Source of the DNA: Candidatus Omnitrophota bacterium
GTDB lineage: Bacteria; Omnitrophota; Gorgyraeia; S143-82
Reading direction: 5' to 3'
Assembly: GCA_015494465.1 (NCBI GenBank)
Contig: WGBD01000004.1
Location: forward strand, 132,627-196,626
Length of the DNA stretch: 64,000 bases
Below are positions 1 through 55,084 of the stretch, one piece after another (positions within the stretch are counted from its first letter, which is position 1; each line of letters opens with the position of its first letter). Both the position numbers and the translations under genes were made by a program. Below the pieces are notes generated by a model that did not search any database, was not told the DNA's origin, and worked only from the letters and a program-made list of their open reading frames with translations.

Positions 1-3000
1 CAGAGATGGCTACCTTTATCCCACCCAATCCCTGGCGACTGTAGTCTTCCACGATATACAGATCGAAGCCCTTTAGAGACAGGCTCCCCGTGGGGCGCTT
101 TACTGCGTAGTGGGATACCTTCCTCAAGGCCACGACCTTGCCGACATTTCTCCAGGCCCTAAGGGGTTTAAAGGCCTCCAGGGCAACCCGGTTTGGGGTC
201 AGGAGGAACAAGGCCTCCGCCTCTAATCCTTTGACCCATCGGTTACCTATCCGGTAGAACCTATCGTCCCCTGGATCTGGTAGCTCCATCCTGACAGGTA
301 GCACCCAACCTGCCAATCTCTCCCTCGTTGGGAGCCCTAGCCCGTACACCAGCAGGCCTCCCTCCGGAGAGACCCGCCCCACCTCGTTCACCTTCAGACG
401 CCCGAGCCCTCGCTGGGGGCCTGCTTCCTCTCGAGATCTTCCTCTAGTCCATCCCCTCAACTCCACCCGACGCCTGGGTAAGGCCAACTTCTCGGTCTTG
501 AAGGCAGGGAACTTCAGGTGCTCTACTGCCAAGGCGAATACGGGGTGCATACCGGTGAAGTCCTTTTCAGGATGCGGTGCGGTGATCTCACCCGCCGGCC
601 CACGAATCGGGGACCTAAACGCCAGGAGGCCTGCCCCCTTGGGATTGTCCAGATAGAGGACCGGGAGGGTCCTCCCAGCGACCACGATCGGTATGTAAAC
701 GAGCCTTTGACCTTTGTGTACGAGGACACTGGGGGAGAAGGGCGTACTGGTCGGACCTTCTCCCGCCCGGTAGCTGGTGTAGATCCGGCGCAAGACCGGG
801 GCCAGGTTAAGGGTCTCCCGCTTCCCCAGAGAGACCAACCGCCCCTCGTAAAGCAGGCCTCGACCTTCGGGCGTAAGGCGCCAACCGATCACTTTACCGC
901 GTCCCCTTACCTCCTCCACCCTAGCAGAAGTGCTGAACCAGCGAGGATAGCGGGAAAAGACCGTGGGGAGGCCGGTCAGAGGCAGGTTAGATCGGCCTAT
1001 CTCCTCCACGCCCACCACCTCTGGATTCATCTTCTGGTAGGCGACATCCACGACCTTATCCGGGTCCAAGCGGGGATTTATAGCCACATACCACCTACCC
1101 ACACCGTCCTTGGAGAGCAGGTAGGGCATACCCGGAGGAGCGGACAACGAACCACCCGGTCCCGCTATCCTAGGCCTGTCGGGATAGTGGTAGATCCAGA
1201 ACCTCCTATCCCCTAACCGGCGCGCAGTGATCTTAACCGGAGACAGGGACTTATCTGAGAAGGTGAATCTCCCCTTTCCCCGGTCGAATCGACCGTAGGC
1301 CAGGTAGAAGTAGTTGAAGACATCTCTTTTGCCCTCGACTCGGTAGAAGTCGGGGACGAGCTTCCGGACGCCATTCCGATCAACGGCCACTACCTCTCTG
1401 CCCCAATCGAACGGGCTCTTATCGGTGGAGTTGTCCACGAGGACCCGTACCTCTTTGACATCTTTGCCCAAGCGCTCTATTCTCTCCGGGAACAGGTAGG
1501 CCAGCACGATCTGATCCGTCGATGGCCTGCTAGCTTTGGACAACCGACGGGCGTAATCTATACGGATCTGCCCAGAATTCGCCTTTAATAGGAGCCCGTT
1601 AGGGGTCTCCTCTAGCTTCACCGGCACCTTAGGACGGGGCAGGGACGCAGGAAGCGGTTTCTTCAGGAGGGCAGACCTTACGGTCATAAGGGTAAGCATC
1701 CTTTCTTTATAGTGATCCGGGACTGGATGCCTGGTAGCGAAGAGCAGATCCACGGGCAAGGCGTAATCCCAGCTATTCTTTTGGATCCTGACGAATCTCA
1801 CCCCGCTGGAGACGATCGCACGCACATCATAAATGTCCCGGGTAAAGTCGAAGAATCGAGGCAGGAAGTCCCTCACATCCACGATGGCCTTGGTCCTGGC
1901 ATCCGGTATCAACATCTGGGCTAAGGCATCAGCGCGTTCAGCCAACTGCTCCCGTCTCCCCACCGTCACCCGCAGATCTCTCCCCGGATAGCTCACCAAC
2001 AGACCTCGAGAGGCCTCGTCGACGACCGCCAATATCCGCGTGCGGGTAACGGGATCCATTGCGGAAAAGGCCCACAGGTCCCCAGCCCGATTGGTAAGCT
2101 CCCAAGTCACCAGCCGATCGTCCTGGTGTAGGCGGTTTATCGCCTTCACCACCGTAGAGTCACCCTTTGCGGAGATAGCCCCTCGATCCAGGTCCACCCC
2201 AACCGCCTGATTGAGGGCGTCGAACTCCCTAGATAGGAACCTATTGGTATTGGGATTGTAAAGCAGTCGCACCATGTAGGAGCTATCCCACGGATTGCGG
2301 TTCACATAGAGGGGATGGAGCTCCATCAACCCTGAGCGTTTGTAGCCCTCCATAATAAACCTCTGGTCCTTAAACTGCAACCTTCGATAAGACCTCTCCC
2401 CTCCTACCAGCCTTCCCAGAGGTCCCCACTCCAGGGCAGACTCGAGCCCAGTTAGCGCAGAGGATTCCAGTAGATTGGCCTGACGAGAATAGAGATAAGA
2501 GCGATAGTCGTAGAGTATCCTGACATCCCTCCAATCCCCGCCTTTTAGATCCTTCACCTTTCTCACATTGAAGGGATAGTCCAACAGCCCCCAATCCCTC
2601 CAGCTGTCCAGCTCCAGTGCGGTATAGGCGTACTCTGATGCGTACGGCCCCTGACCCAACTGGAAGAACTGGGCGACCTCGTTCCTACTGCAAGCCAAAG
2701 CGTACTCCTTGAACCCAGGGCTGTTGAGGACTGCCTCTGCCAGATTCTGGACCGGCCTGCCTCGCCAGGCGTCGTAAGGCAGTTTTAGCATGTGCAAGAG
2801 AGACGAATGCCTATAGAACTCCCGCCCGAAGCGGGTCTCTTCTATCCCGTCGAGACCTGCTTTGATTCCAGCCCCTAGGGCGTATAGGGTGTCCGCCACC
2901 GCAAAGCCGAATAAGGACCGATTGAGAGGATCGTCTATTCCCACCGCGTCCGCCAACTCGTTTAGGCCCAAGGCGATACCTGCCTTGGCCAACGAGGAAC

Positions 3001-4474
3001 TAAATGTCCTAACGAGGTCCTGTCGCCTGCCGTAGAGCGTAGCGTAAGTAGCGCTAGTGAGGATCGGGCTGAGGTACTGGGAGTACTGCAAGGCCTTCTT
3101 GCTTCCGGTGAGCTTGGCCAGCCCGATGGAGCTCCCGACCACGACAGCGGTAGGCAAGGCCTGATACACCGCCTCCCGCAAAGAGAACCATCCTGCGGAC
3201 AGGCCAGAGATTCCCTCGAGGTTGACATCGTCTATTCCCAAGATCCTACCGACCGGATCGGAATAGAGGTGGGATGTAGTGGAGATCTCCTGGCCCAGAT
3301 CCTCCAATCCCAGACGGGAGTAGAGATCGGTAGAGGAGAAGAGGGCAGAGCTAATACCGCTCGCGACTATCCCTGCAGACAGAGAGGTCAACATGCGAGC
3401 ACCGTATCTGGTGATCGCGCTGTCGTACTTGGAGTAGTCAAACAACGCCTTCTCCAACCCCACGCTGACCCCAGCGGTAAGTGCTCCCCGCAGTGATCCC
3501 ACCCCCAATCCCTGGAAAAATCCCTTTAGACCACCCTTAAAGGCCCACTTGTGCCCGAGGAAGGAGACCTTGGCCCCCATCGACCCCGCCAAGGCGGTGC
3601 GAAACGCGGTGCTAGAGAGCATACTCGAGAATTGGACCAGCGCAGGGCTCGCGCCTGCGCTCTGGAGGAGTTCTCCTGCGATGTTGGAAAGGTTACCCGC
3701 TATCAGGCTGGTAGTGAAGCTTTGGGAAAAACTGAGACCGGAGACCGGGAAGAAGGTAGCCCCCACGAAGGCGGATCCCAAACTCAATCCCAAGGACTTT
3801 AGGGTGTCCTTAAACGATGTCCCAGGGAGGAGCTCGTCTATGTCCAGGGCATCTTTTGGCCCTTCGCGTCTGTAGCCACCTCTTATCCGACCGGGGGACT
3901 CTATGGGTCCTATACCCTCGACGATCACCCATCCTGACCAGGTTTCCAGAAATTCCTTCCAGGCCAGTCCCCGCTCCTCTCCCCCGTCCCACACCCATAT
4001 CTTATCAGGGCCCACCCTTTCGACTACCAGATAATGGGCCGGGGACATGTGGACCAAAAACCGCAGAGAATCGTGAATCCTCTCTCGGAGGAATCCCCTC
4101 TTATCCCTAACCCTAAAGAGGCTCAAGGGGCGTCTGTGCTTCAGGGCCAAGAGGTAGACCGAGGACAAGAGCACGCTGAAAGGATCCCGATCCCCAACCC
4201 GTCTGTCGAGCTGATCCAAGAACAGGGCAGTTTCCTTATCATCCAAACCCAGGAATCTGGCCAAGGCCTGAGAGGCACAATTGGACCTCACCGAGTGATC
4301 CCCAAAAATCACCGGACGCCCCGGTCCCCTTAACGAATAAGACGATGTCCAGGCGATCTGATCAAAGGCCAAGAGCAGGGCCATCGACAGACACAAGGCC
4401 CTCTCCAACAGCCCGGATCTATAGGACGAAGACACCCCGCTTGCGATTTTTTCTTTTTCCCTCATCTCGAGCAT
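1..4474 (-). CDS. Giant hypothetical protein (over 1490 aa, 3' end beyond the left window edge). The N-terminus is a papain-like C39-like cysteine peptidase domain (Peptidase_C39_2/BtrH-like), followed by a long Gly/Ser/Ala/Leu-rich region.
   Basis: Hand translation of the minus strand from ATG 4474 (MLEMREKEK; second ATG at 4465) runs to position 1 with no stop. It is absent from the ORF track because there is no in-window stop. An in-frame TAG lies just upstream of ATG 4474. Motifs ...HSVRSNCASQALARFLG... (candidate catalytic Cys) and ...AHYLVVERVGPDKIWVWDGG... (candidate catalytic His) resemble C39-like peptidases. Confidence 0.6.
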   Translation of the reverse strand, partial: MLEMREKEKIASGVSSSYRSGLLERALCLSMALLLAFDQIAWTSSYSLRGPGRPVIFGDHSVRSNCASQALARFLGLDDKETALFLDQLDRRVGDRDPFSVLLSSVYLLALKHRRPLSLFRVRDKRGFLRERIHDSLRFLVHMSPAHYLVVERVGPDKIWVWDGGEERGLAWKEFLETWSGWVIVEGIGPIESPGRIRGGYRREGPKDALDIDELLPGTSFKDTLKSLGLSLGSAFVGATFFPVSGLSFSQSFTTSLIAGNLSNIAGELLQSAGASPALVQFSSMLSSTAFRTALAGSMGAKVSFLGHKWAFKGGLKGFFQGLGVGSLRGALTAGVSVGLEKALFDYSKYDSAITRYGARMLTSLSAGIVASGISSALFSSTDLYSRLGLEDLGQEISTTSHLYSDPVGRILGIDDVNLEGISGLSAGWFSLREAVYQALPTAVVVGSSIGLAKLTGSKKALQYSQYLSPILTSATYATLYGRRQDLVRTFSSSLAKAGIALGLNELADAVGIDDPLNRSLFGFAVADTLYALGAGIKAGLDGIEETRFGREFYRHSSLLHMLKLPYDAWRGRPVQNLAEAVLNSPGFKEYALACSRNEVAQFFQLGQGPYASEYAYTALELDSWRDWGLLDYPFNVRKVKDLKGGDWRDVRILYDYRSYLYSRQANLLESSALTGLESALEWGPLGRLVGGERSYRRLQFKDQRFIMEGYKRSGLMELHPLYVNRNPWDSSYMVRLLYNPNTNRFLSREFDALNQAVGVDLDRGAISAKGDSTVVKAINRLHQDDRLVTWELTNRAGDLWAFSAMDPVTRTRILAVVDEASRGLLVSYPGRDLRVTVGRREQLAERADALAQMLIPDARTKAIVDVRDFLPRFFDFTRDIYDVRAIVSSGVRFVRIQKNSWDYALPVDLLFATRHPVPDHYKERMLTLMTVRSALLKKPLPASLPRPKVPVKLEETPNGLLLKANSGQIRIDYARRLSKASRPSTDQIVLAYLFPERIERLGKDVKEVRVLVDNSTDKSPFDWGREVVAVDRNGVRKLVPDFYRVEGKRDVFNYFYLAYGRFDRGKGRFTFSDKSLSPVKITARRLGDRRFWIYHYPDRPRIAGPGGSLSAPPGMPYLLSKDGVGRWYVAINPRLDPDKVVDVAYQKMNPEVVGVEEIGRSNLPLTGLPTVFSRYPRWFSTSARVEEVRGRGKVIGWRLTPEGRGLLYEGRLVSLGKRETLNLAPVLRRIYTSYRAGEGPTSTPFSPSVLVHKGQRLVYIPIVVAGRTLPVLYLDNPKGAGLLAFRSPIRGPAGEITAPHPEKDFTGMHPVFALAVEHLKFPAFKTEKLALPRRRVELRGWTRGRSREEAGPQRGLGRLKVNEVGRVSPEGGLLVYGLGLPTRERLAGWVLPVRMELPDPGDDRFYRIGNRWVKGLEAEALFLLTPNRVALEAFKPLRAWRNVGKVVALRKVSHYAVKRPTGSLSLKGFDLYIVEDYSRQGLGGIKVAIS

Positions 4475-4627
4475 TGGGTATAATCTCTAATCAGCAAGCA
4501 AATTCTTGATTAACATTTTAAAATCTTTAAATAATATCACAGTCCGAGGCCGTTTTCAAGTCGGCTCCGCCTCCGCTTCCCTAATTCCTTGACAACCAAC
4601 GACCTATGTGATAGGCTAGACTCGCAT

Positions 4628-5188
4628 ATGGATCCCGAAACCCACAAGAAAGTCCTGTCCAAGTCCATAGAGGCCCTCAAGTCTGGGCACAGGGCCTATG
4701 CAGTGGCCCTTCTCAAGTCCCTGCTCAAGGAAAATCCCGACGACATCTCCGCAAGGAAACTCCTATTCAAGGCCCTCCAGGAAAGTACAGGGGTCTCGCG
4801 CACGAACAAGCTCCAGTCCTACTTCCTCAAGCTAAAGGCGGAAAAGGTGCTCAGCTCAGGCCAGACCCGCAGGGCCTTGGAATTACTCCAGCAGGCCTTG
4901 GAGCTAAACCCCTTAAATGTCTCAATAATCGTGGCCATAACCGAGATACTCTCCACCCACAATCCTCAGGCGGTGGAACTCCTCGAGAGCATAGATGTCG
5001 AACACATACAGGACACAAACCTGCTCAAACGAATAGCCAGGGCCTACCTAAACGCCAAGCACCTGCCGATGGCAAAGAAGGTATTGAAACGGATACTAAT
5101 AGTCCAACCCGCAGACCTGGAGTCGCAGAAGATGCTGAAGAACCTCGAGGCCCTGGATGTGTTAGAGAGGGAGTTCAAATCGCCCTGA
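4628..5188 (+). CDS. TPR-repeat protein. It is the only convincing plus-strand gene and is divergent from the giant gene.
   Basis: ORF 4589..5188 (TTG start); ATG at 4628 is the more likely start. Helical repeats (ALLKSLLKENPDD..., ALELLQQALELNP...) are typical of TPR proteins. Stop is TGA. Confidence 0.55.
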   Translation: MDPETHKKVLSKSIEALKSGHRAYAVALLKSLLKENPDDISARKLLFKALQESTGVSRTNKLQSYFLKLKAEKVLSSGQTRRALELLQQALELNPLNVSIIVAITEILSTHNPQAVELLESIDVEHIQDTNLLKRIARAYLNAKHLPMAKKVLKRILIVQPADLESQKMLKNLEALDVLEREFKSP

Positions 5189-6299
5189 GGAGTACCCCTA
5201 CCGCGAAGAGGTTTACCACCTGGGCGGTCCCACCGTAGCTCACGAAAGGCAGAGGCAGACCCTTTGGAGGTAGCATCCCAAGATTTACGCCGAGGTTGAT
5301 GATCGTCTCTATGGCGAATAGGGACATGATCCCCACTATCAGCAGTTTTCTAAAGGGGTCCCTCTGCTGTAGCCCCGCCCCGAAACCCTGCACGAAAAGG
5401 TAGAAAAACAGAGCCAGGACCAGGAAGGTTCCCAAAAGCCCCAGCTCTTCGCCTATCACCGCAAATATAAAGTCGGTGTGAGAGGCGGGCAGATAAAAGA
5501 GCTTCTGCAGACCCTGCCCCAATCCCCTACCCACGAGTCCACCCGCGCCCAGGGCGATCTGAGACTGGATGATCTGATACCCCGCATCTCGAGGGTCTGC
5601 CCAGGGATTGAGAAAGGCCAATATGCGTTTTCGGCGATAGCCCGCGGATAAGACGAGGATCGAGACCACCGGTAAGGAGATCAGGAGCAGAGAGATTAGG
5701 TGGGAGAGCCTAAACCCCGCAGTCCACATCAGACAAAACAGGGCCCCTGCGCAGACGACGGTGGTCCCCAGATCCGGTTCTAGTAGGACGAGCCCTGCCA
5801 TCACTCCAAATACGATAAACACGGGGAACATCTCCCTTATGTCCACCAGCAGGCTGTTCTTCTCTTCCATCTTCCGAGAGAAGAGGTCTGCGGAGTACAT
5901 CAACAAGAAGAGCTTGGCCAGCTCAGAGGGCTGGAAGTTTATTCCCCCCAAAGATAGCCATCGCCGCGCCCCTCCCACCTGTTTACCTATACCTGGGACC
6001 AGTACCAGGCCCAACAACCCCAGGACCACCAGCATGCCCCACTTCCCGTACCTCCTCCAGAAGTCAATGGGGATCTTGTAGCCCAGCAACATCGCCAAGA
6101 TCCCCAAGAGAGAGAAGGCCAGCTGTCTCTTAAAGTAGAAGGCCGGATCACCGTTGTAGGCCTGGGCGTAGGCGAAACTGCTAGAATAGACCATGACTAT
6201 CCCCACCCCTAGGAGGGCAAAAACGGTCCCCAAGATCCTCTTACGGAAGAGGTCCGAATCAGTCCCGCTTATGCGCCAGAGCCTCTGCGACCAGCTCAT
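5175..6299 (-). CDS. ftsW: FtsW, the SEDS-family peptidoglycan glycosyltransferase of cell division (FtsW/RodA/SpoVE).
   Basis: Typical multi-transmembrane SEDS sequence, and it lies immediately downstream of murD. The ORF extends to 6386 but the likely start is MSWSQRLW at about 6299. Stop is TGA. Confidence 0.8.
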   Translation of the reverse strand: MSWSQRLWRISGTDSDLFRKRILGTVFALLGVGIVMVYSSSFAYAQAYNGDPAFYFKRQLAFSLLGILAMLLGYKIPIDFWRRYGKWGMLVVLGLLGLVLVPGIGKQVGGARRWLSLGGINFQPSELAKLFLLMYSADLFSRKMEEKNSLLVDIREMFPVFIVFGVMAGLVLLEPDLGTTVVCAGALFCLMWTAGFRLSHLISLLLISLPVVSILVLSAGYRRKRILAFLNPWADPRDAGYQIIQSQIALGAGGLVGRGLGQGLQKLFYLPASHTDFIFAVIGEELGLLGTFLVLALFFYLFVQGFGAGLQQRDPFRKLLIVGIMSLFAIETIINLGVNLGMLPPKGLPLPFVSYGGTAQVVNLFAVGVLLRAI

Positions 6300-7500
6300 C
6301 GAAGACCCTTCCCCTTTCCTCGTAATTCTTAAACTCGTCGAAGCTGGAACACATGGGGGAAAACAACAAGACATCACCGGATTCAACGACCGAAAGCGCC
6401 TTTACCACCGCCTCCCTCAGGTTTTTTGCCGGTAGCAACTTTTCAGCCCCCATCGAAGACAAAGCGGACGATATCCTCGTCCGTGCAGGTCCGCAGGTCA
6501 CGACCTTCCGAATCCGGTCCGCCCAAGGGAGGATCCAATGATAAGGGCTGTCTTTCTTGTCCTTGCCACCACAGATCAACACGATGCGCCTATCGGGATG
6601 GTCTCTGACGACCCGCTTCAAGGCCCAAACGGTAGAGGCAGGGTTGGTCGCCTTTGAATCGTTTATCACTACTAAATCGTCCAGTTCCTTTTCACTGGCA
6701 CGATAACGAAGCGGAGCGAAGTTCTCCATGGCCCGATCCCAGTCCAGCCCTATCCCCAAAGACCTGCAGAGGGCAACCACCCCTGCTTGATTGTCGTCCC
6801 ACCTATCGTTCGCCTGAAACCAACTCACTCCCGGGATCGAGACCCCCATCAATACCTCGTCAGACGAATTTAGGAACGCAAATCTCTTTTCCTTCATCCT
6901 AGATATCGGAGAAAGCTTGGCGGAGATGTACTCTTCCATGTCCCTGTGCCAATCAAGGTGATCCGGGGTGATGTTGGTGATCAGGAAACGATCCGGGGTA
7001 AAGGTGCGGGAGGAAAATAGTTGAAAGGAACTGGCCTCCACAACTGCCACCTCGCTGTCCCCGTCTAAAATACTCACGAAGGGCACGCCGATGTTCCCGC
7101 ACTCCCTGGCCCTAATACCTGCCTTGCGCAGGAGATGGGCAGTGAGGCAGACGCTAGTGCTCTTTCCATTGGTACCGGTGATGCAGACGACCCTCCCTGA
7201 GAAGAAGTCTTGGGCCAGGTCCAGTTCGGAGCACATCTTGTCTTGAAGCTCACGAGGAAAGGAGTCCGGGCGGATGGATGGACTCAGGACTATCCGCTCT
7301 GCCCGAGAAAGGAATTCCCAGCTGTGCCCGCCTACCTCCCACTCCGCCTCTGCCTTCTCTAATAATTCGATCAGGTCCTCTTCCAAGGAGGGAGCGGAGG
7401 TAGACAACGCGAATCTGATCTTCCGCCTGGCAAAGAACGAGGCCAGTGCTCGGGCAGTGATCCCGGATCCAAGTATCAAGAAGTCCCAACGACCTTTCAT
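6259..7500 (-). CDS. murD: UDP-N-acetylmuramoylalanine--D-glutamate ligase (MurD).
   Basis: Mur ligase features (GITGTNGKSTS P-loop) and an NAD-binding-like N-terminus. Its ATG overlaps the mraY stop (ATGA). Confidence 0.85.
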   Translation of the reverse strand: MKGRWDFLILGSGITARALASFFARRKIRFALSTSAPSLEEDLIELLEKAEAEWEVGGHSWEFLSRAERIVLSPSIRPDSFPRELQDKMCSELDLAQDFFSGRVVCITGTNGKSTSVCLTAHLLRKAGIRARECGNIGVPFVSILDGDSEVAVVEASSFQLFSSRTFTPDRFLITNITPDHLDWHRDMEEYISAKLSPISRMKEKRFAFLNSSDEVLMGVSIPGVSWFQANDRWDDNQAGVVALCRSLGIGLDWDRAMENFAPLRYRASEKELDDLVVINDSKATNPASTVWALKRVVRDHPDRRIVLICGGKDKKDSPYHWILPWADRIRKVVTCGPARTRISSALSSMGAEKLLPAKNLREAVVKALSVVESGDVLLFSPMCSSFDEFKNYEERGRVFDELVAEALAHKRD

Positions 7501-8588
7501 CGCAGTTTAAGGCTGGCCAGAGACAGTATCGCCAAGAGCACCGAGACGATCCAGAACCTGACTATCACCTTCACCTCGTGCTGTCCTCCCACCTGAAAGT
7601 GGTGATGAATAGGAGCCACCTTGAACGGACGCTTGCGAAAGAGGCGATATCCCGCAACCTGCAATATCACCGAAAGGGCCTCTGCCACGAATATACCCCC
7701 CGCCAGGATCAACAACACCTCCTGCTTCACGAACAAGGCCACCGCCCCTATCAGTCCCCCCAGGGCAAGGGCACCGACATCCCCCATAAAGACCTCTGCC
7801 GGGTAGGCATTATACCACAGGTACCCCAATCCTACCCCAAACAAGCCTGCACACATGACCGCAACTTCTCCTACCCCCTTCACATAAGGCACGAACAGAT
7901 AGGTAGCCAATCGATAGTGGCCGGCTACATAGGCCAGACCGGCGTAAGTCAGGGCCACCATGATGGTGGTCCCGATGGCTAACCCGTCCATCCCGTCGGT
8001 GAGGTTCACCGCGTTGGAGGTGGCAGTGATCACCAAGGCAGACCACAACGGATAGAATACCCCTAAACCTATCACCAGGTGCTTGAAAAATGGGAAGAAT
8101 ACATCTTTGGGGAACCAGTCTTGGCCCAGCAATACGAGGCCTACTACCAGGCCCGCTACGGCCTGGTTTATCAACTTAGTGCGTTTGCTTACCCCCTTAG
8201 CAGAGTTGGTCCTCAGCTTTCGCAGGTCGTCTATGAGACCTAATAGCCCCAGGTGGAGGACGACATAGGTGCCTAACCAAGGGAATATCACCCGCCAATC
8301 CACCCACAACACCCACACCAAGAGCAATGAGACGAGTATAAATATCCCCCCCATTGTGGGTGTGGAGCGTTTGCTCTCGTGCCACTCGGATAGCTGAGGA
8401 CACTCCTTTCCATCCCGGGTAGGCTGATAGGCCTGCAAGCGCAAGAGGTATTCCTTGCCAATTCCTATTAGGTACCAGGCCACCAGGAAACCAGTCAAGG
8501 CGCTCATAAGACCCCGAAAGGATATGTAGCGGAGGACATTGAACCCGATCCATACGTCCTTAAACCGATAAAACAACCAGTAAAGCAT
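7497..8588 (-). CDS. mraY: Phospho-N-acetylmuramoyl-pentapeptide transferase (MraY).
   Basis: Multi-transmembrane protein with MraY hallmarks (NAVNLTDGMDGLA, HHHF...). Dcw-cluster context. Stop is TGA. Confidence 0.85.
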   Translation of the reverse strand: MLYWLFYRFKDVWIGFNVLRYISFRGLMSALTGFLVAWYLIGIGKEYLLRLQAYQPTRDGKECPQLSEWHESKRSTPTMGGIFILVSLLLVWVLWVDWRVIFPWLGTYVVLHLGLLGLIDDLRKLRTNSAKGVSKRTKLINQAVAGLVVGLVLLGQDWFPKDVFFPFFKHLVIGLGVFYPLWSALVITATSNAVNLTDGMDGLAIGTTIMVALTYAGLAYVAGHYRLATYLFVPYVKGVGEVAVMCAGLFGVGLGYLWYNAYPAEVFMGDVGALALGGLIGAVALFVKQEVLLILAGGIFVAEALSVILQVAGYRLFRKRPFKVAPIHHHFQVGGQHEVKVIVRFWIVSVLLAILSLASLKLR

Positions 8589-21677: not shown

Positions 21678-22067
21678 TGGTGGAGGTGCGGGGAATCGAA
21701 CCCCGGTCCCTGTCGCCGACCTCGGTGAGGCCCTACATGCTTAGCCATCCTTTTGATCTTTCCGGATAACCAGCCGGATGGCGGGCCGATTATCCGGGCA
21801 GCCCTTTCCTACCGATCGGGATACAAGGGCGAACTCTCCCGACGGGCGGTCTAGGCCGACCGTCACCTTACCCCGACCGCGAAAGTAAGGCAACGGGCCT
21901 GGCTCGTATTAGGCCAGGGCAAGGGCAGAGCCATTAGCAATGGCCTCTGCCTCAGCGATCAGTGCATCGTCGGCACTTATTTGCCACGGGTTTTTTACGA
22001 GGCCACCCGTACCTCGGCATGCACCTCAACCAAGGCCTTTCAGCGCAGGTCGAGTCCGTACACCCCC
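21678..22067 (-). ncRNA. ssrA: tmRNA (ssrA).
   Basis: Reverse complement begins GGGGGTGTACGGACTCGACCTGCGCTGAAAGGCC...GGTGCATGCCGAGG...GGCCTCGTAAAAAACC and ends GGGGTTCGATTCCCCGCACCTCCACCA. It aligns closely to the E. coli tmRNA 5' tRNA-like domain, pseudoknot 1 and T-arm/acceptor/CCA. The internal reading frame ends ...GSALALA-TAA. Confidence 0.9.
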
Positions 22068-22160: not shown

Positions 22161-23066
22161 TCACCTCGGTGCGGCATCTAGAAGCGCCCTCAAGCGGGTA
22201 TTTCTTATCAAGAGAATCTGATTCCTTTCGCATCCCAAGTAATTGGCTACCACATCGCACTTGGCCCGGAACAGGAAAAAGACCTCCCTATCCACCTCTG
22301 AAAGGGATTCGAAGTTTCCCTGCCCCTTGCTTATCACCATGTCCGCAGACCAAAAGACTTTCAAGAACCCCTCGTCCGCCTTATCCAGCACCACTCCCGG
22401 AGCGGGTACACCAGTAGTCACGATCTCACATAGTTTATCAAGACCCACTGCCCTTGCTTCCTCTTCGGTCACATCGTTGATTATGGGTCCACCTCTCACC
22501 GCAAACCAGATCCGGATCTCTGGGAACCTCTCCCGCAGTAACTCTACGAAAAGCTTATCGAAGACGACCTCACCACAATTATCGCCTATGTAGAGCAGGG
22601 TCCGAGCCTCCTCGAGGCTGGAGAGAAATGCAGAGATCTCGAAGTACGGAGACTCGACCATTTCGTGAGAAGAATTTAATATCGTCTCCACCTCCCTCAA
22701 GACATCGACATCTTGGGCAACCCCAAAGTCTATGATGTTCCCCGCAATGGCAAACAGTAAGGCCCTCCTAAGCGGATTTGGGCTTTCGAGGATCTTTGCC
22801 TTGAGCTCGCTCTCCACCGCCAGCACCGCCTGATTGCTGTGATCCTTCAAGCCCTCGTAGGGATCGGCCGTACCGCTGATCTCAGCCACCGCCCGGTAAA
22901 CGCCAATAGCGAACTCCGGAGGGGAGATCTCGTCCTTTATACTGCAAAACTGGCATCCTATTGCCCTCAAGATCTCTTTAACCACCGGCTCCTCCAATCC
23001 CAGCACCGAACGCAATCCAAGGGCCTGACGCATAAAACAAGGGGCACACTCCAACTGCCACCTCAT
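22161..23066 (-). CDS. DUF89-family protein (ARMT1-like damage-control phosphatase).
   Basis: GDNCGE motif and overall DUF89 pattern. Translationally coupled to the upstream 1088-aa gene. Confidence 0.55.
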   Translation of the reverse strand: MRWQLECAPCFMRQALGLRSVLGLEEPVVKEILRAIGCQFCSIKDEISPPEFAIGVYRAVAEISGTADPYEGLKDHSNQAVLAVESELKAKILESPNPLRRALLFAIAGNIIDFGVAQDVDVLREVETILNSSHEMVESPYFEISAFLSSLEEARTLLYIGDNCGEVVFDKLFVELLRERFPEIRIWFAVRGGPIINDVTEEEARAVGLDKLCEIVTTGVPAPGVVLDKADEGFLKVFWSADMVISKGQGNFESLSEVDREVFFLFRAKCDVVANYLGCERNQILLIRNTRLRALLDAAPR

Positions 23067-26000
23067 AAACCATCGCTCCCCATTAGCAGGACGCCACCTT
23101 TCTCCTTCTCTTTTCGTCCCTCCTTTAAGCGCCTAAGGACCTCTTCCCTGGACTTTATCACTACATCCCAGGCCACCTTGACCGACTTTACTGAGACCGC
23201 GTCGGAGACATTATATAGCAGACGGATGTCTTCAACAACCTCTTCTGGGACATCCTTTAAAGGAAGCCCTGAGAAGGAAAGCGCGTCTGCAAGAGAGATA
23301 AGCAGGCCATTGCATATCCTCTGCTTGATGATACCAGGTGCATTCTCTATCGTGTCGTAAAGGCCCTTGGCGTAGCCTGTCCACCACCTAAACCAGGGTT
23401 CTTCCCTCAGGAAGTCGGCCAACGGGGTCTCTCCCTTCAGGAGGCCGATCAGGTAATCGTATCCCTGCCTACTCGCCCGACGGTACTTTTCCTGGCTCAC
23501 CGACAGTCTAAACGGTGGAAGGTACCTCACCAGCCTACCTGCCTCTCCTTTGGCTAATAACTCCTCCTTGAGGTCCCGGGCGTACCTAAAGCCATCGGGC
23601 CAGCGACGCTCGTCGGAGAACCTGCCTGCCATAAACAAGGCCTTACCTGCCAAAGCGGAGAGCAGTTGCTCGGTCAGGGCCTCGTTAAAGAACACGGAAA
23701 ACAGGAACCAGGCCATGGGAGAGGTCTCCCCCGCCTTGTAGCGGTTGTAGGCGTGTCTCCAAGACAACAGTTGCATCTTAGAGGCATCCTCTAGATCCAA
23801 GAGACCTCTTATCTCCAGTCCCCGCTTCAAAGCAAGGTCTATTAGGCCAAACAGGAGAAGGGCCTTACCCTCCTTAGTCAGCCCTTCTTCCCCCCAGTAG
23901 ACATCGGGAATAGCCACCAAGGCCCGTTCTGGGTCGAGGTAAACCGGAGCAGAAAAGACCGTGTAAGGGACTTTCACCACGCTGAGATCTAGTTTCCCAG
24001 ATCTTACCAACCTTAGGAGCCTGCTCTTTAGAGGGGACTCCACCAATCCGGCCTCGACCAGTCCGATCAACGCCCGTCTTCTCCACTCAACCCTCCCCTG
24101 CACTGGGATGGTGAACTGGACCTCCCCCTCGGTCGTCCGTTGGAGGAAGCGCAGTCTCTCCTTCTCACTAGCAATCAATCTCTCTTCCGAATCGAAAAAT
24201 AGGGCATCCTTCTGCTCGATGAAGTACCAGGTCAAGAAGATCTCGAGGACCTTGTACGCTGGGACCTTCTTCCCGATTATCGCCAGTTTCTTGGGATCAG
24301 GATTAAGGGCCAACCAGGTCCTAACCAATTTGGGGGCAACCAAGACATCCCCCAGGGCAGAGTAAAAGAGCCGATACCCTCTTTTCCCAAAACGATGAAA
24401 GTCCTTTTGGGCCTCCAACCACTGGGAAACATTCTGAAAGAACTCCTCGTAGAGCTCAGGGTGGTTGGCTATCACAGAAAACGGCTGGACTATCCGGTGA
24501 TAGAGCATCGCGGAAAGAAAGGAGTAAACAACCCTCTTCTGCCTATCAGACAGTTCTCGGAAAGCAGAAGAGACCTTTTCGGGGGCAACCGAGGACAAGG
24601 CTTTCTTCATCCATTCGCGGATGGTCCGGGCCCCATCGGGGAAAGACCTATTGACCACGGCCATCCGCAGTATCCCCAACCTCAAGCGAACGGGGACATT
24701 ACTCAGTTCCTCGTTCAGACCGAGCAAGAACCCTCGGACCTCTCCTGGCAGGGCTTCCAACCTACTAAGGATCAAACCCCTCCCAGTGTACATCCAAGAC
24801 AAGGCCTTACCGAAGTCTTCCCCAGTGTAGGCCAGAAAAAAGATTCCCAGGATCTCAACCACCTCTTCGTAAAGACTGCGCTCGTTCTTTATCCGCGAGG
24901 CAGAGAACCCTAAATAAGAGCGGAACAGCTTCTGCCACCTCTTTACTACTAGATCCGAACCGTAGCGTTGGGCCAGGTAGGACTTATCCACCTCCTTAGA
25001 GAATCCCCTTCCCCTAACCCTGATGGCTATCCCATCTTTGCCCTTCAGGATATCTACCTTGATCTGGGAAAGGAGCGTCCACAGGTGCAAGAGCTCGTGG
25101 AGTAGGACATACCTACCAGTCTCGTTTAAGTCTTGGTTTTGAGAGAAACACTCAGGGGAAAGCAGGATGTGCGTCTGCTTAGTGCGGGGCTCGACTACTA
25201 TTGCCCCGTATATGTCGTGATAGGAATCCGAGAGCCTGTAGACACCCACCTCGGTTATGCCGTTGCTCTTACAGGCCTGGGCAAGCCAACCGCGGAACAC
25301 CTTCTCGACCCAACTACCCCAATCGCTTGCCAACTCTCCCCAGACCTCACCAACAAATTCGCTCCCATCCCAAAGGACGAAGACTTGCTCTGCAGAGACC
25401 TTTCTCTCCTCTTGGCCTTCCCCACGGAATCGTGGGAATAAGCTAATGGACAGGACCTTCTTCCCCTCCGGAGAACGATAAGGCTCTCCTAGATGCAGAC
25501 CGAATATGCCCAACCTAAGGTAGTCCCGCACCTTTATCCGCTGGGGAGATATATGGTGAGCAGGAAACACTCTCACCGTATTCGGAGAAGAGAGATAGAT
25601 CCCTCCCATTAACGGGGCCCCTGCTTCTAATCCCGGCCTCAAGTAGGTGTCGAGGCACCTGCGTTTATTCCAAGAAATTAATCCCCCAACACTGGGATCG
25701 ATCTCCTCCAGGTCTATCCTCGTCCTCAGCCAACGGGAGATCAACCATAGGCGGTAAAAGTCCCTCAACTCCTCATACTCCCTATCCCGGGAGTTGAGCC
25801 TGGATTCCAGTTTCTCTCTAATCGTCTCTAAGACCAAGGCGGTCTCTTCGTCAACGGGCCCATAGACCTGATAATTCACCTTAAACCTCACCTCAAACAC
25901 CCCAAAGGCCTCCTCTGCTTCGGTTACCCACGCGGTGTTTGGTTCGATCCACCACCTCAATGAAATACCGTTACCTAGCTCTAGTCCCGCTTCCTTAATA

Positions 26001-26329
26001 AGGCGCCCAGCATCTTCCTTTAGGCGCAGATCCATCCTCACCAACCACTCCCCTGCGGGGGACGAGACCAGATTCTGAGAGACCAGATTATTTTCCAGGA
26101 CCTGGGGGTGGAGGTTTACCCAACAGCTATCTCCTTCCACCCCCAACAGGTCGTATAAGGTCCACACCAGGTGATCTCCATCTATCTGAGCTCCGGAATG
26201 GTGCAGAGAAAGGTCTTCAAACCCCTCCCCCTCCATTACCACAGCTATGCCCTCGTCGTAGGCTAGCGAAGAGGCGGAGACGATCAAACTCGTGAACATC
26301 ACCGCAAGGACGAGCCTAATCCTCGACAT
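23063..26329 (-). CDS. Large secreted hypothetical protein (1088 aa) with an HExxH motif.
   Basis: Signal peptide MSRIRLVLAVMFTSLIVSASSLA. YVLLHELLHLW (HExxH) at about residue 410. SD AAAGGAGG precedes ATG 26329. Confidence 0.5.
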   Translation of the reverse strand: MSRIRLVLAVMFTSLIVSASSLAYDEGIAVVMEGEGFEDLSLHHSGAQIDGDHLVWTLYDLLGVEGDSCWVNLHPQVLENNLVSQNLVSSPAGEWLVRMDLRLKEDAGRLIKEAGLELGNGISLRWWIEPNTAWVTEAEEAFGVFEVRFKVNYQVYGPVDEETALVLETIREKLESRLNSRDREYEELRDFYRLWLISRWLRTRIDLEEIDPSVGGLISWNKRRCLDTYLRPGLEAGAPLMGGIYLSSPNTVRVFPAHHISPQRIKVRDYLRLGIFGLHLGEPYRSPEGKKVLSISLFPRFRGEGQEERKVSAEQVFVLWDGSEFVGEVWGELASDWGSWVEKVFRGWLAQACKSNGITEVGVYRLSDSYHDIYGAIVVEPRTKQTHILLSPECFSQNQDLNETGRYVLLHELLHLWTLLSQIKVDILKGKDGIAIRVRGRGFSKEVDKSYLAQRYGSDLVVKRWQKLFRSYLGFSASRIKNERSLYEEVVEILGIFFLAYTGEDFGKALSWMYTGRGLILSRLEALPGEVRGFLLGLNEELSNVPVRLRLGILRMAVVNRSFPDGARTIREWMKKALSSVAPEKVSSAFRELSDRQKRVVYSFLSAMLYHRIVQPFSVIANHPELYEEFFQNVSQWLEAQKDFHRFGKRGYRLFYSALGDVLVAPKLVRTWLALNPDPKKLAIIGKKVPAYKVLEIFLTWYFIEQKDALFFDSEERLIASEKERLRFLQRTTEGEVQFTIPVQGRVEWRRRALIGLVEAGLVESPLKSRLLRLVRSGKLDLSVVKVPYTVFSAPVYLDPERALVAIPDVYWGEEGLTKEGKALLLFGLIDLALKRGLEIRGLLDLEDASKMQLLSWRHAYNRYKAGETSPMAWFLFSVFFNEALTEQLLSALAGKALFMAGRFSDERRWPDGFRYARDLKEELLAKGEAGRLVRYLPPFRLSVSQEKYRRASRQGYDYLIGLLKGETPLADFLREEPWFRWWTGYAKGLYDTIENAPGIIKQRICNGLLISLADALSFSGLPLKDVPEEVVEDIRLLYNVSDAVSVKSVKVAWDVVIKSREEVLRRLKEGRKEKEKGGVLLMGSDGL

Positions 26330-54976: not shown

Positions 54977-55084
54977 AATCAAAGTATAACTTTGGCTAGG
55001 GTTTTTGACAAACCTTTTAAAAAGGGGCGCCGGGACGGACACCAGGTGGCTAATGCCCGTCCCTGAGGGGGGAGATGATTACTA

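Follow-up and report, generated by a model that had tools for sequence, protein, structure and literature searches.

What gene occupies the left edge of the 64,000-nt window, the whole stretch of DNA analysed here, and what might its product do? According to the initial annotation, the minus strand carries a giant, unlisted reading frame there, open for about 1490 codons from an ATG at 4474 or 4465, whose product starts with a C39-like peptidase domain. Indeed, translation from ATG 4474 to the window edge (1..4474, minus strand) gave 1,491 codons with 0 stops; the frame was re-inspected for a stop codon overlooked in the original translation, and none was found. The other five frames of this interval contained 29-72 stops, and the chance of a stop-free run of 1,491 codons was calculated from the base composition to be ~1e-25. 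The frame is absent from the ORF list because it runs off the window, as had been presumed. Translation can begin no earlier than the ATG at 4472..4474, as an in-frame TAG is located at 4487-4489, four codons upstream, with no alternative start in between, and a second in-frame ATG follows at 4463-4465. A search for the true C-terminus on the source contig added at least 4,172 contiguous codons past window position 1, giving a contiguous open frame of 5,663 codons, or 6,076 codons when counted over a 100-N scaffold gap, frame continuity over the gap being assumed. The frame has no stop up to the contig end, and the C-terminus was not reached. At its left edge, the window contains no more than the first quarter of a real bacterial gene that extends over 5,663 codons or more.

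The codon usage of this frame correlated with that of the housekeeping genes in the window (r=0.88), whereas the other frames gave values of ~0, and its GC content at the three codon positions (0.58/0.46/0.69) was like that of the same housekeeping genes. Two independent assemblies, ENA and Logan, were compared with the window. The ENA assembly was identical over all 4,474 nt of the ORF, and the Logan assembly over its first 825 nt, where they overlap. A frame of this length could also have arisen in the assembly as a chimera, or through the merging of several neighbouring genes, either by sequencing errors or because stop codons are read in a non-standard way. This would fit with the scaffold gap, with a C-terminal part that resembles a row of normal-sized enzymes, and with the ENA gene caller, which skipped the ORF and called small antisense ORFs within it. 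However, the ENA caller probably missed the ORF because it enters the N gap without a stop, since the part past the gap was called (L085 3-983), and the Logan assembly called a 5' fragment of the ORF. Under the standard code, the 16,989 contiguous bases of the frame are free of stops of every type, and recoding therefore need not be invoked; the codon usage is frame-specific over the window portion tested, the three assemblies agree, and two related proteins, P0001 and P0070, are collinear with the giant protein over long stretches. We regard an artefact as very improbable. The analysis showed that a divergent Omnitrophota-like bacterium has a single, genuine gene here on its chromosome, and that window 1-4474 (minus strand) comprises the 5' end of this gene.

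The gene shares a 114-bp divergent intergenic region with a TPR gene. This region contains a sigma-70-like promoter candidate (4531..4559, minus strand; TTGAAA, 17 nt, TATTAT, with an extended -10 TG), identified by consensus match alone (10/12); the search gave three promoter-like sites, compared with 0.5 expected from shuffles. Together with the TPR gene, the cell-division genes mraY-murD-ftsW form the 5' neighbourhood.

The 16 best matches of the MreB encoded in the window all belonged to Candidatus Omnitrophota (68-72% identity), and among 64 relatives of the N-terminal head of the giant protein nearly all with a source name were labelled Omnitrophota or Omnitrophica. Judged by this one marker and by the source labels of the relatives, the host is likely a member of the Omnitrophota. 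Large C39-headed proteins had been described as poorly characterised, and this holds: two recent preprints describe the type, and none of the proteins has been biochemically characterised. West-Roberts et al. reported N-terminal C39 domains beside signal peptides in full-length giant genes (bioRxiv 10.1101/2023.11.21.568195), and Nielsen & Lui described 24 proteins that form a PF03412 architecture cluster, as well as a 'multi-enzyme' class (bioRxiv 10.64898/2026.06.07.730766). Thus, the architecture had already been published for Omnitrophota giant proteins, which the initial annotation had missed. Since the relatives are nearly all from Omnitrophota and the MreB is closest to Omnitrophota sequences, we conclude that the giant protein is a very divergent member of the published class of very long Omnitrophota proteins with a C39 head.

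The proposed C39-like character of the first 200 residues was recovered transitively, and only weakly in a direct search. PF03412 matched the window protein with 13.2-13.9 bits (E=0.05-0.08), below the gathering cut-off of 22 bits, and PF13529 gave no match in the Pfam search. In contrast, an HMM built from the relatives only, with the window protein left out, recognized residues 84-186 with 28.6 bits (E=3e-7), the best of 5,000 shuffles reaching 7.8 bits. All six relatives scanned were above the Pfam C39 cut-off (25.9-38.5 bits), and a precomputed PF03412 call was present on most database matches to the head. A family profile that included the window sequence matched the LahT double-glycine protease 6MPZ (E=0.0015). 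The structure prediction that had been recommended pointed in the same direction: the AlphaFold model of the head (pLDDT 63-92 over the core, mean 67.7) had as its top PDB matches in Foldseek 6MPZ, 3K8U, 8VPB, 7N87, 6V9Z, 5XE8 and 4RY2 with probabilities of 0.87-0.99, at weak E-values of 0.02 or worse and a target-normalised TM of ~0.5. The best PDB folds were the peptidase domains of LahT, ComA and PCAT1, which are C39 double-glycine peptidases. These profile and model comparisons support the assignment of residues 64-189 (3908..4285, minus strand) as a C39-like domain core of the papain-like cysteine peptidase type.

The candidate Cys and His had been correctly picked out, as both motifs are present and both residues are invariant in 40/40 aligned family members. 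The candidate nucleophile Cys66 (codon 4277..4279, minus strand) is contained in SNCASQALARFLG, and the candidate general base His147 (4034..4036, minus strand) in HYLVVERVGPDKIWVWDGG, together with Asp163 (3986..3988, minus strand), the candidate third residue of a triad. Position 163 is Asp in 33, Glu in 5, Gln in 1 and Asn in 1 of the 40 aligned sequences. In the AlphaFold model, a helix begins with Cys66 and a beta-strand with His147; in LahT, Cys27 is located on helix alpha1, and 16 residues separate His101 from Asp117 (PMC6363468), as they separate His147 from Asp163. The superposition on C39 catalytic residues that had been proposed as a check was obtained for the His and the Asp in the family profile, where His147 and Asp163 are in register with LahT His101 and Asp117. 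The position six residues before the Cys, where a Gln is reported as an oxyanion helper, is occupied by His60 in the window protein and by Trp in the relatives' consensus WLKGKPC.

The missing Gln and the weak direct match to the C39 model would be expected of a non-proteolytic C39-like domain (CLD), as in HlyB. The head would then serve as an export tether or chaperone, and the protein would be one uncut membrane-anchored scaffold; CLDs do bind unfolded substrates during secretion (PMC6363468). However, they are defined by the loss of the catalytic Cys, and the need for the Gln has been doubted in the LahT paper (PMC6363468). Here, Cys66 and His147 are kept in 40/40 sequences and Asp or Glu at position 163 in 38/40, among relatives whose heads are only 23-29% identical to that of the window protein, which argues for selection on catalysis. 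A CLD-type head thus appears quite improbable to us.

A hydrophobic segment, residues 22-44 (LLERALCLSMALLLAFDQIAWTS; 4343..4411, minus strand), precedes the domain and aligns with WIRVVAFVVVAVFLPEQVAQA of the relatives. It follows a short basic stretch and has a Kyte-Doolittle 19-residue mean of 1.47; by hydropathy, transmembrane calls in the window protein are borderline. The segment may be a signal peptide or a membrane anchor. It suggests that the head is exported, whereas C39 domains of the canonical type are active in the cytoplasm.

Shortly after the domain, 36/36 unique relatives carry a motif, [LIV](-12)-x3-E(-8)-[AS]-K-x-[IV](-4)-[LM]-G(-2)-[AGS](-1), located at His+56 to His+62 in 35 of them and at His+72 in one. 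By eye, in the site listing, conservation drops directly after this site. The motif resembles the published recognition rules for double-glycine leaders, namely a GG, GA or GS end, Leu(-12)-X3-Glu(-8)-Leu(-7), and hydrophobic pockets that accommodate the residues at -4, -7 and -12 (PMC6363468), although position -7 is Ala or Ser in the relatives, not Leu; leader family models did not match the post-domain segments. This leader-like motif just past the peptidase is absent from both preprints. The site of P0070 reads IKGG before Y. In the window protein, the candidate double-glycine-type processing site is I197-R-G199-G200 followed by Tyr201 (3875..3886, minus strand), 52 residues after His147. 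It is degenerate, matching at -4, -2 and -1 only (I-x-G-G), with Pro at -7 and -11, and the chance of finding [IVLM]xG[GAS] in such a position is roughly estimated as 5-10% (22 such sites in 4,652 aa).

Given this degeneracy, an active head might cut other substrates in trans rather than its own chain. Such substrates could be the cell's own small peptides with double-glycine leaders or, if the head is exposed outside, proteins of prey or host cells, and the motif past the domain would have a structural role or act as an autoinhibitory pseudo-substrate. An intact Cys66/His147/Asp163 triad is compatible with this, and West-Roberts et al. leave such substrates open, writing that C39 domains 'may cleave other protein substrates' (bioRxiv 10.1101/2023.11.21.568195). 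The peptidoglycan-binding domain of the relative P0002 and the Tad/T2SS-F genes adjoining the relative P0005 fit an outward-facing role. However, the window genes that were scanned included neither a small GG-leader gene candidate nor an ABC exporter or other secretion or toxin-processing partner. Furthermore, the motif lies at a nearly fixed distance in 36/36 relatives, ends with G-[AGS], and marks an apparent drop in conservation; a built-in cleavage site is the simplest explanation for this. We therefore consider cleavage in trans unlikely.

The region that follows the site had been described as a 250-aa Gly/Ser/Ala/Leu-rich stretch; the composition is real, but the region is longer, extending over about residues 215-560 (2795..3832, minus strand). 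It consists of 52% G+S+A+L, compared with 33% in the remaining window part, and is weakly hydrophobic, with three 19-residue windows having Kyte-Doolittle means of 1.34-1.54. A region of similar composition is present in the relatives, with a few positions that are invariant (G229, Q281, A290). As had been stated, the rest of the window part has no recognisable domain: no Pfam, NCBIfam or PDB sequence match was found there. Residues 531-1380 (335..2884, minus strand) are collinear with P0001, the only orthologue-like fragment found (BLASTP, 26% identity over 939 columns, E=1e-55), which fills a 3,163-bp JGI contig and is open at both ends. The AlphaFold model of this region was unusable (pLDDT 29.7).

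After residue 560, about 2,600 residues without a known domain lead to a Gly-rich hydrophobic module (~3170-3830), which is conserved in another C39-headed Omnitrophota protein. P0070 is collinear with the giant protein at the head and at this module. Another ~870 residues without a known domain (~3830-4700) separate the module from a tail of enzyme-sized modules: APH kinase-like (65 bits), GNAT (26 bits), UPF0489 (31 bits) and LOG/SLOG (LOG, 64 bits), all above cut-off. These recognisable enzyme domains past the window had been missed by the initial annotation. Between the tail modules lie [ST]SSS[LA] linkers, each SSS[LA] encoded by different codons. The last 1,392 residues contain five SSS[LA] against 0.12 expected, a number reached in 0/20,000 shuffles. 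The linkers between enzyme modules are absent from both preprints.

As a whole, membership of the published class combined with self-processing by the C39 head is our best explanation, to which we assign a probability of about 0.6. The hydrophobic N-terminus would take the head to the cytoplasmic membrane, where the C39 domain would be an active protease like the peptidase domains of PCAT/AMS transporters. The protein would carry its own putative substrate in the form of the double-glycine-type motif that immediately follows the domain. Cleavage behind G-[G/A/S], either in cis or of one copy by its neighbour, would free the body from anchor and head; the [ST]SSS[LA] linkers could conceivably be cut as well. 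The body would be kept at the membrane by the internal hydrophobic module. Since the cofactors required by kinase, GNAT and LOG domains are cytoplasmic, the enzyme tail would be expected to face the cytoplasm. We infer this self-processing of the giant protein from its sequence features.

The closest structural counterparts of the head are the peptidase domains of the bifunctional PCAT/AMS ABC transporters (LahT, ComA, PCAT1; MEROPS/Pfam C39, PF03412), with the best fold matches and, in 6MPZ, the best PDB sequence-profile match. Both have the Cys on the first helix and the His and Asp 16 residues apart on neighbouring strands, and the relatives' GG/GA/GS motif with hydrophobic -4 and -12 and Glu at -8 corresponds to the published leader rules, apart from Ala or Ser in place of Leu at -7; the oxyanion Gln is missing here. 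In contrast to these transporters, the C39 domain of the giant protein lacks fused transmembrane and ATPase domains of the ABC type, neither of which was found in the 6,076 residues read or in the scanned neighbours. It comes after a hydrophobic N-terminal segment, so that it may lie outside the cytoplasm. Furthermore, the substrate of PCAT/AMS peptidases is a small peptide, a molecule of its own, which carries the site N-terminally, whereas the putative motif here is downstream in the same chain.

The CLD of RTX type I secretion ABC transporters (HlyB) is similar in combining a divergent N-terminal C39 fold with a very large, possibly unfolded, exported polypeptide, but it lacks the catalytic Cys (PMC6363468), which is invariant in the giant protein family, and the ABC transporter context is missing here. 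Viral and bacterial self-processing polyproteins or toxins also combine a protease with enzyme-sized modules in one frame, joined by short conserved linkers. They are a functional analogy only. The linkers found here are unlike the double-glycine specificity of C39 peptidases.

The protein is most similar to the very long proteins of Omnitrophota. The papers' thresholds were 10 kaa or 30 kaa, compared with 5,663 to at least 6,076 residues read here. Unlike those proteins, it has no SecA DEAD, dockerin or carbohydrate-active domain in the part read, and its 5' neighbours are the cell-division and TPR genes rather than type II secretion or pilus genes. Its head also differs from the main subfamily, being 23-29% identical and below the Pfam threshold. 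The likenesses are a likely Omnitrophota host, a C39 peptidase beside a signal-peptide-like segment as the sole identifiable N-terminal domain, a mostly 'dark' sequence, internal hydrophobic segments, and unrelated enzyme domains, including GNAT and kinase/phosphotransferase, tiling the chain. Finally, with six matches among 1.84 billion representatives the giant protein is essentially unique in sequence, in line with the 80% singleton clusters reported for such proteins (bioRxiv 10.64898/2026.06.07.730766).

The minus-strand frame that the initial annotation had translated by hand at the left edge of the window (1-4474) is indeed open: 1,491 codons are free of stops, and 29-72 stops interrupt each of the five other frames there. 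From the base composition, an open frame as long as this would arise by chance with a probability of about 1e-25. The codon usage of the frame correlated with that of the window's housekeeping genes (r=0.88; other frames near zero), and its GC1/2/3 values were equal to theirs. A chance or non-coding open frame, the alternative to a gene, is thus ruled out by codon usage and stop statistics together; RNA genes, also considered, were not found in the region. The start at ATG 4474, with a second ATG at 4465, was borne out, as an in-frame TAG lies four codons upstream with no other start between. A divergent TPR gene lies 114 bp away, and the interval holds a sigma-70-like site at 4559-4531 (minus strand), TTGAAA-17-TATTAT with the TG of an extended -10. 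The output of the ORF finder also agreed with the explanation given for the absence of the ORF from the ORF list: it runs off the window, and the finder therefore omits it.

An exact look-up of MraY retrieved the same locus on the ENA scaffold REYS20-1_SAMN12239311_METAG-scaffold_182 (72,561 bp) and on one Logan contig. The scaffold was identical to the window over all 4,474 nt of the giant ORF, and the Logan contig over its overlap, the first 825 nt. An NCBI contig of 781,960 bp, presumably the one from which the window was taken, carries the window's proteins as well. We read the extension of the ORF by walking the ENA scaffold via the small antisense ORFs called inside it. The frame runs through 5,663 contiguous open codons to a gap of exactly 100 N in the scaffold, beyond which 379 further open codons reach the contig end; the total is 6,076 codons if the frame is continuous over the gap. 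Both figures are lower bounds, with the frame still open at the contig end; the length thresholds of the class are at least 10,000 aa in the catalogue of Nielsen & Lui and more than 30,000 aa for 'giant' in West-Roberts et al.

In the ENA annotation the giant ORF itself is uncalled, and a series of small genes of 47-232 aa without Pfam matches runs antisense to it, one of them at window 518-1216 (plus strand) and more on the stretches L001, L003 and L085, where the extension was read. These small genes are almost certainly spurious. A separate partial gene was annotated on the stretch past the 100-N gap, and the gene caller probably missed the giant ORF because it meets the gap without a stop. 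A standard annotation pipeline can, as this case illustrates, miss a gene of at least 17 kb entirely and substitute spurious antisense genes for it.

The window is an ordinary bacterial chromosome with almost all genes on the minus strand, and mraY-murD-ftsW directly adjoin the giant ORF; further genes include those for an HD-GAF protein, a GH57 branching enzyme, tmRNA, tRNA-Gly, MreB, PBP2, RodA, MurA and FTHFS. The strand bias is strong (41 of 45 long non-overlapping ORFs on the minus strand), and the cumulative GC skew falls steadily across the first 10 kb. The division/cell-wall cluster at 4589-8588 ends after mraY-murD-ftsW, and where ftsW is usually followed by genes such as murG and murC, the divergent TPR gene stands instead, with the giant gene beyond it. 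The tmRNA gene (21678-22067, minus strand) encodes the tag peptide ADDALIAEAEAIANGSALALA. Three more long minus-strand ORFs stand out. The one at 48692-55042 (2,116 aa) has RelA/SpoT (780-884) and HATPase_c (1285-1408) as its only domains, most of the protein being unannotated, and those at 23063-26329 (1,088 aa) and 45517-47559 (680 aa) gave no Pfam match at E<=1e-5.

Among GTDB representatives, the 16 best matches of the window MreB were all from Candidatus Omnitrophota (68-72% identity); the first match from outside this phylum had 67%, and other PVC phyla reached at most 69%. Since there is no close GTDB species representative, the host is a divergent lineage. One marker (MreB) and the source labels of the head relatives thus point to an Omnitrophota genome as the one that encodes the giant gene.

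The first 200 residues (numbered from ATG 4474) had been proposed to carry a C39-like peptidase domain. The direct match to PF03412 (Peptidase_C39) was weak, and the proposal held through transitive homology to C39 members. Directly, the PF03412 score was 13.2-13.9 bits (E=0.05-0.08), below the gathering cut-off of 22 bits, and the match spanned profile positions 75-127 only, i.e. the His region. PF13529 did not match the giant protein at E<=10, NCBIfam gave nothing with either the window product or the head alone, and phmmer against the PDB found no meaningful match for the whole product or the head. When the first 1,200 residues were searched exhaustively with HMMER against 1.84 billion representative proteins, only six proteins were returned. 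Five of these, P0002-P0006, are 575-2,566 aa long; they align to residues 86-385, and each exceeds the Pfam C39 cut-off, at 25.9-38.5 bits. A profile search with an alignment of the head relatives extended the family to 64 proteins, most of them on short contigs; nearly all those with a named source bear the title 'cysteine peptidase family C39 domain-containing protein, partial [Candidatus Omnitrophota/Omnitrophica]'. As a control for the low-complexity region, we built a profile from the peptidase domain of the relatives only, leaving the giant protein out. It scored residues 84-186 at 28.6 bits (E=3e-7), and the best of 5,000 shuffled copies reached 7.8 bits.

With the giant protein included, the domain-only family profile found the double-glycine protease LahT (6MPZ) as its best PDB sequence (E=0.0015). 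The Cys and His that had been picked out as catalytic candidates were the right residues: Cys66 and His147 are each present in 40 of 40 aligned sequences, and 38 of the 40 family members have Asp or Glu at the position of Asp163. His147 and Asp163 are in register with the catalytic His101 and Asp117 of LahT, both pairs being 16 residues apart. In an AlphaFold model of residues 40-215 (mean pLDDT 67.7; core 63-92), Cys66 opens a helix, His147 opens a strand and Asp163 closes the next strand. The best PDB matches of this model were the peptidase domains of LahT, ComA and PCAT1 (probability 0.87-0.99; target-normalised TM 0.51-0.55), with weak E-values of 0.02-0.3. The Gln about six residues before the Cys, a proposed oxyanion helper, is absent, being replaced by His60 in the giant protein and by Trp in the consensus of the relatives (WLKGKPC); the LahT study itself doubted this oxyanion role (PMC6363468). 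Judged from its homology and its conserved residues, the head belongs genuinely, if divergently, to the C39 family and keeps the whole triad. It occupies residues 64-189, behind a hydrophobic segment at residues 22-44, and is followed by no further domain until about residue 4740.

A second conserved element follows the peptidase. All 36 unique relatives carry a motif 56-62 residues past the catalytic His (72 in one). Counted back from the candidate double-glycine-type site, it comprises Gly at -2, Ala, Ser or Gly at -1, Ile or Val at -4, Ala or Ser at -7 and Leu, Ile or Val at -12 (each 36/36), together with Leu or Met at -3 (32/36), Glu at -8 (31/36), Lys at -6 (30/36), Asp or Glu at -10 (23/36) and Ser or Thr at -11 (19/36). 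Judged by eye, conservation drops straight after the site. Published substrate rules for C39 peptidases are a GG, GA or GS end, Leu(-12)-X3-Glu(-8)-Leu(-7), and hydrophobic pockets for -4, -7 and -12 (PMC6363468), and the motif of the relatives matches them closely except for the small residue at -7. Neither Omnitrophota preprint (West-Roberts et al.; Nielsen & Lui) mentions this motif, and West-Roberts et al. state that their analysis was prevented by a lack of information on where cleavage occurs (bioRxiv 10.1101/2023.11.21.568195). A search of the post-domain segments with the NCBIfam leader-peptide families gave one insignificant match, to TIGR04194 (13.5 vs 33 bits).

The giant protein keeps only I197-x-G199-G200 of this motif, 52 residues past the His, and both -7 and -11 are Pro. 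By a rough estimate, such a four-residue pattern would occur at such a position by chance in about 5-10% of cases. The relative that shares most with the giant protein, P0070, has the full motif with a GG end, followed by Tyr as in the giant protein. For the family of these relatives, we regard self-processing at a double-glycine-type site as a well-motivated hypothesis; for the window's own protein it is a weaker one.

The Gly/Ser/Ala/Leu-rich region expected behind the head is present and is longer than the 250 aa first assigned to it: it covers residues 215-560, is weakly hydrophobic and consists of 52% G+S+A+L, compared with 33% elsewhere in the window part. As had been noted, the remainder of the window part has no recognisable domain, and our Pfam scan to residue 4650 gave no match after the head. 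Residues 531-1380 are collinear with P0001, an orthologue-like fragment of 1,054 aa (26% identity, E=1e-55). P0001 fills a 3.2-kb JGI contig that is open at both ends and therefore represents part of a further very long gene. Modelling residues 531-1400 with AlphaFold from this two-sequence alignment gave an unusable result (pLDDT 29.7). Internal repeats were looked for and rejected, the best self-BLAST E-value being only 0.002. Pattern scans of GTDB genomes and JGI metagenomes with the 4,652-aa protein and the two-sequence alignment found no relatives, and a word-indexed homology search with the 1,491-aa product returned no match, not even the product itself, which that collection apparently lacks.

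Residues 1492-4652, used as a query, retrieved a single protein, P0070 (3,829 aa, partial, C39-positive, from an Omnitrophica assembly). Two regions are collinear between it and the giant protein: the head, and a Gly-rich hydrophobic module that spans residues about 3170-3830 (L003 about 2460-4440, minus strand) and has no Pfam or PDB match. Within the module, residues 3189-3341 and 3593-3832 match P0070 2823-3041 and 3498-3765 with up to 32% identity (E=6e-27), and hydropathy indicates about 8-10 borderline hydrophobic segments in both proteins alike. No known domain was found at residues about 3830-4700. An HExxH motif in this part, HELTH at residue 4621 (L003 about 80-100, minus strand), was considered as a zinc metalloprotease and rejected, as no metalloprotease family supported it; it is probably a chance match.

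Past residue 4700, the character of the protein changes to enzyme-sized modules. These are an APH phosphotransferase (65 bits), a GNAT (26 bits), a UPF0489 (31 bits) and, after the 100-N gap, a Lysine_decarbox/LOG with SLOG (64 bits), all above the cut-offs. Between the modules lie [ST]SSS[LA] linkers, at residues 4708, 5077, 5246, 5544 and 6072 (L085 1140-1239 and beyond the window). Five occurrences compare with 0.12 expected, and none of 20,000 shuffles reached five. The codons differ from one linker to the next, which places the conservation at the level of the protein. The linkers are candidate processing sites.

The initial annotation was therefore supported in both its observation and its interpretation. 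The gene is not categorically new, as its kind has already been described in two preprints, and it is a new, very divergent member of that kind. A giant multi-module membrane-associated protein headed by a C39-family domain whose triad is intact is as far as the analysis goes; any mechanism beyond this is what we infer from the sequence. The boldest reading, which we hold to be unlikely (a probability of roughly one in five), is that the C39 head and the double-glycine-leader-like motif would form a self-contained 'protease plus built-in leader' module that releases Omnitrophota giant proteins from their N-terminal anchor, with the [ST]SSS[LA] linkers as further processing points. If so, these giant genes would be bacterial polyproteins, in which operon-like sets of enzymes are made as one chain and then cut, and the cleavage points that West-Roberts et al. 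described as missing would be supplied. Few protein-coding features of bacteria are as poorly understood as the giant genes of Omnitrophota, most of whose sequence matches nothing known. The value of the present gene lies in two motif-level leads on maturation, the double-glycine-type site and the [ST]SSS[LA] linker. Should either be a real cleavage site, giant proteins could be divided into their functional parts in silico as well as in the laboratory, which according to the published studies has not been possible (bioRxiv 10.1101/2023.11.21.568195; bioRxiv 10.64898/2026.06.07.730766).

The full-length giant genes of Omnitrophota have N-terminal regions that are domain-free save for a C39 peptidase near predicted signal peptides, and these C39 domains were suggested possibly to cleave giant proteins or other substrates (West-Roberts et al., bioRxiv 10.1101/2023.11.21.568195). 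Among Omnitrophota proteins of at least 10 kaa, the PF03412 group is the largest architecture cluster, 80% of the sequence clusters are singletons, and a 'multi-enzyme' class has many unrelated Pfams tiling one chain (Nielsen & Lui, bioRxiv 10.64898/2026.06.07.730766). The giant gene resembles these very long proteins in host, head, dark body, hydrophobic module, enzyme tiling and sequence uniqueness. Its C39 domain lies beside a signal-peptide-like segment in an otherwise domain-poor N-terminal region, as in the C39-headed class, and APH, GNAT, UPF0489 and Lysine_decarbox/LOG share one chain, as in the 'multi-enzyme' class. It differs from them in that its length is a lower bound only, that the part read has no SecA, dockerin or carbohydrate-active domain, that its 5' side is occupied by cell-division genes and not secretion genes, and that its head is unusually divergent. 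Giant proteins of the archaeovorin type combine SecA DEAD/preprotein-binding domains with numerous transmembrane helices (West-Roberts et al.), whereas the part of the giant protein read has no SecA-related Pfam match and shows about 8-10 borderline hydrophobic segments at 3170-3830. The C39-headed relative P0005 (at least 2,215 aa; L090 1609-6277) has a Tad-domain gene and two T2SS-F genes immediately upstream of it, neighbours that agree with the link between giant genes and type II secretion/pilus genes reported in the literature; none such lie 5' of the window gene. P0002 is a complete protein of 2,566 aa with a peptidoglycan-binding domain and the same head, so the C39 head module is used on proteins of very different lengths.

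Compared with PCAT/AMS transporters, the C39 domain of the giant protein appears to be built on the same plan but without the ABC transporter, since no ABC domain was found in the 6,076 residues read or in the window genes scanned, and it may lie outside the cytoplasm. The C39-like domains (CLD) of the HlyB type have lost the catalytic Cys (PMC6363468), whereas the giant protein keeps Cys66, which is invariant in its family.
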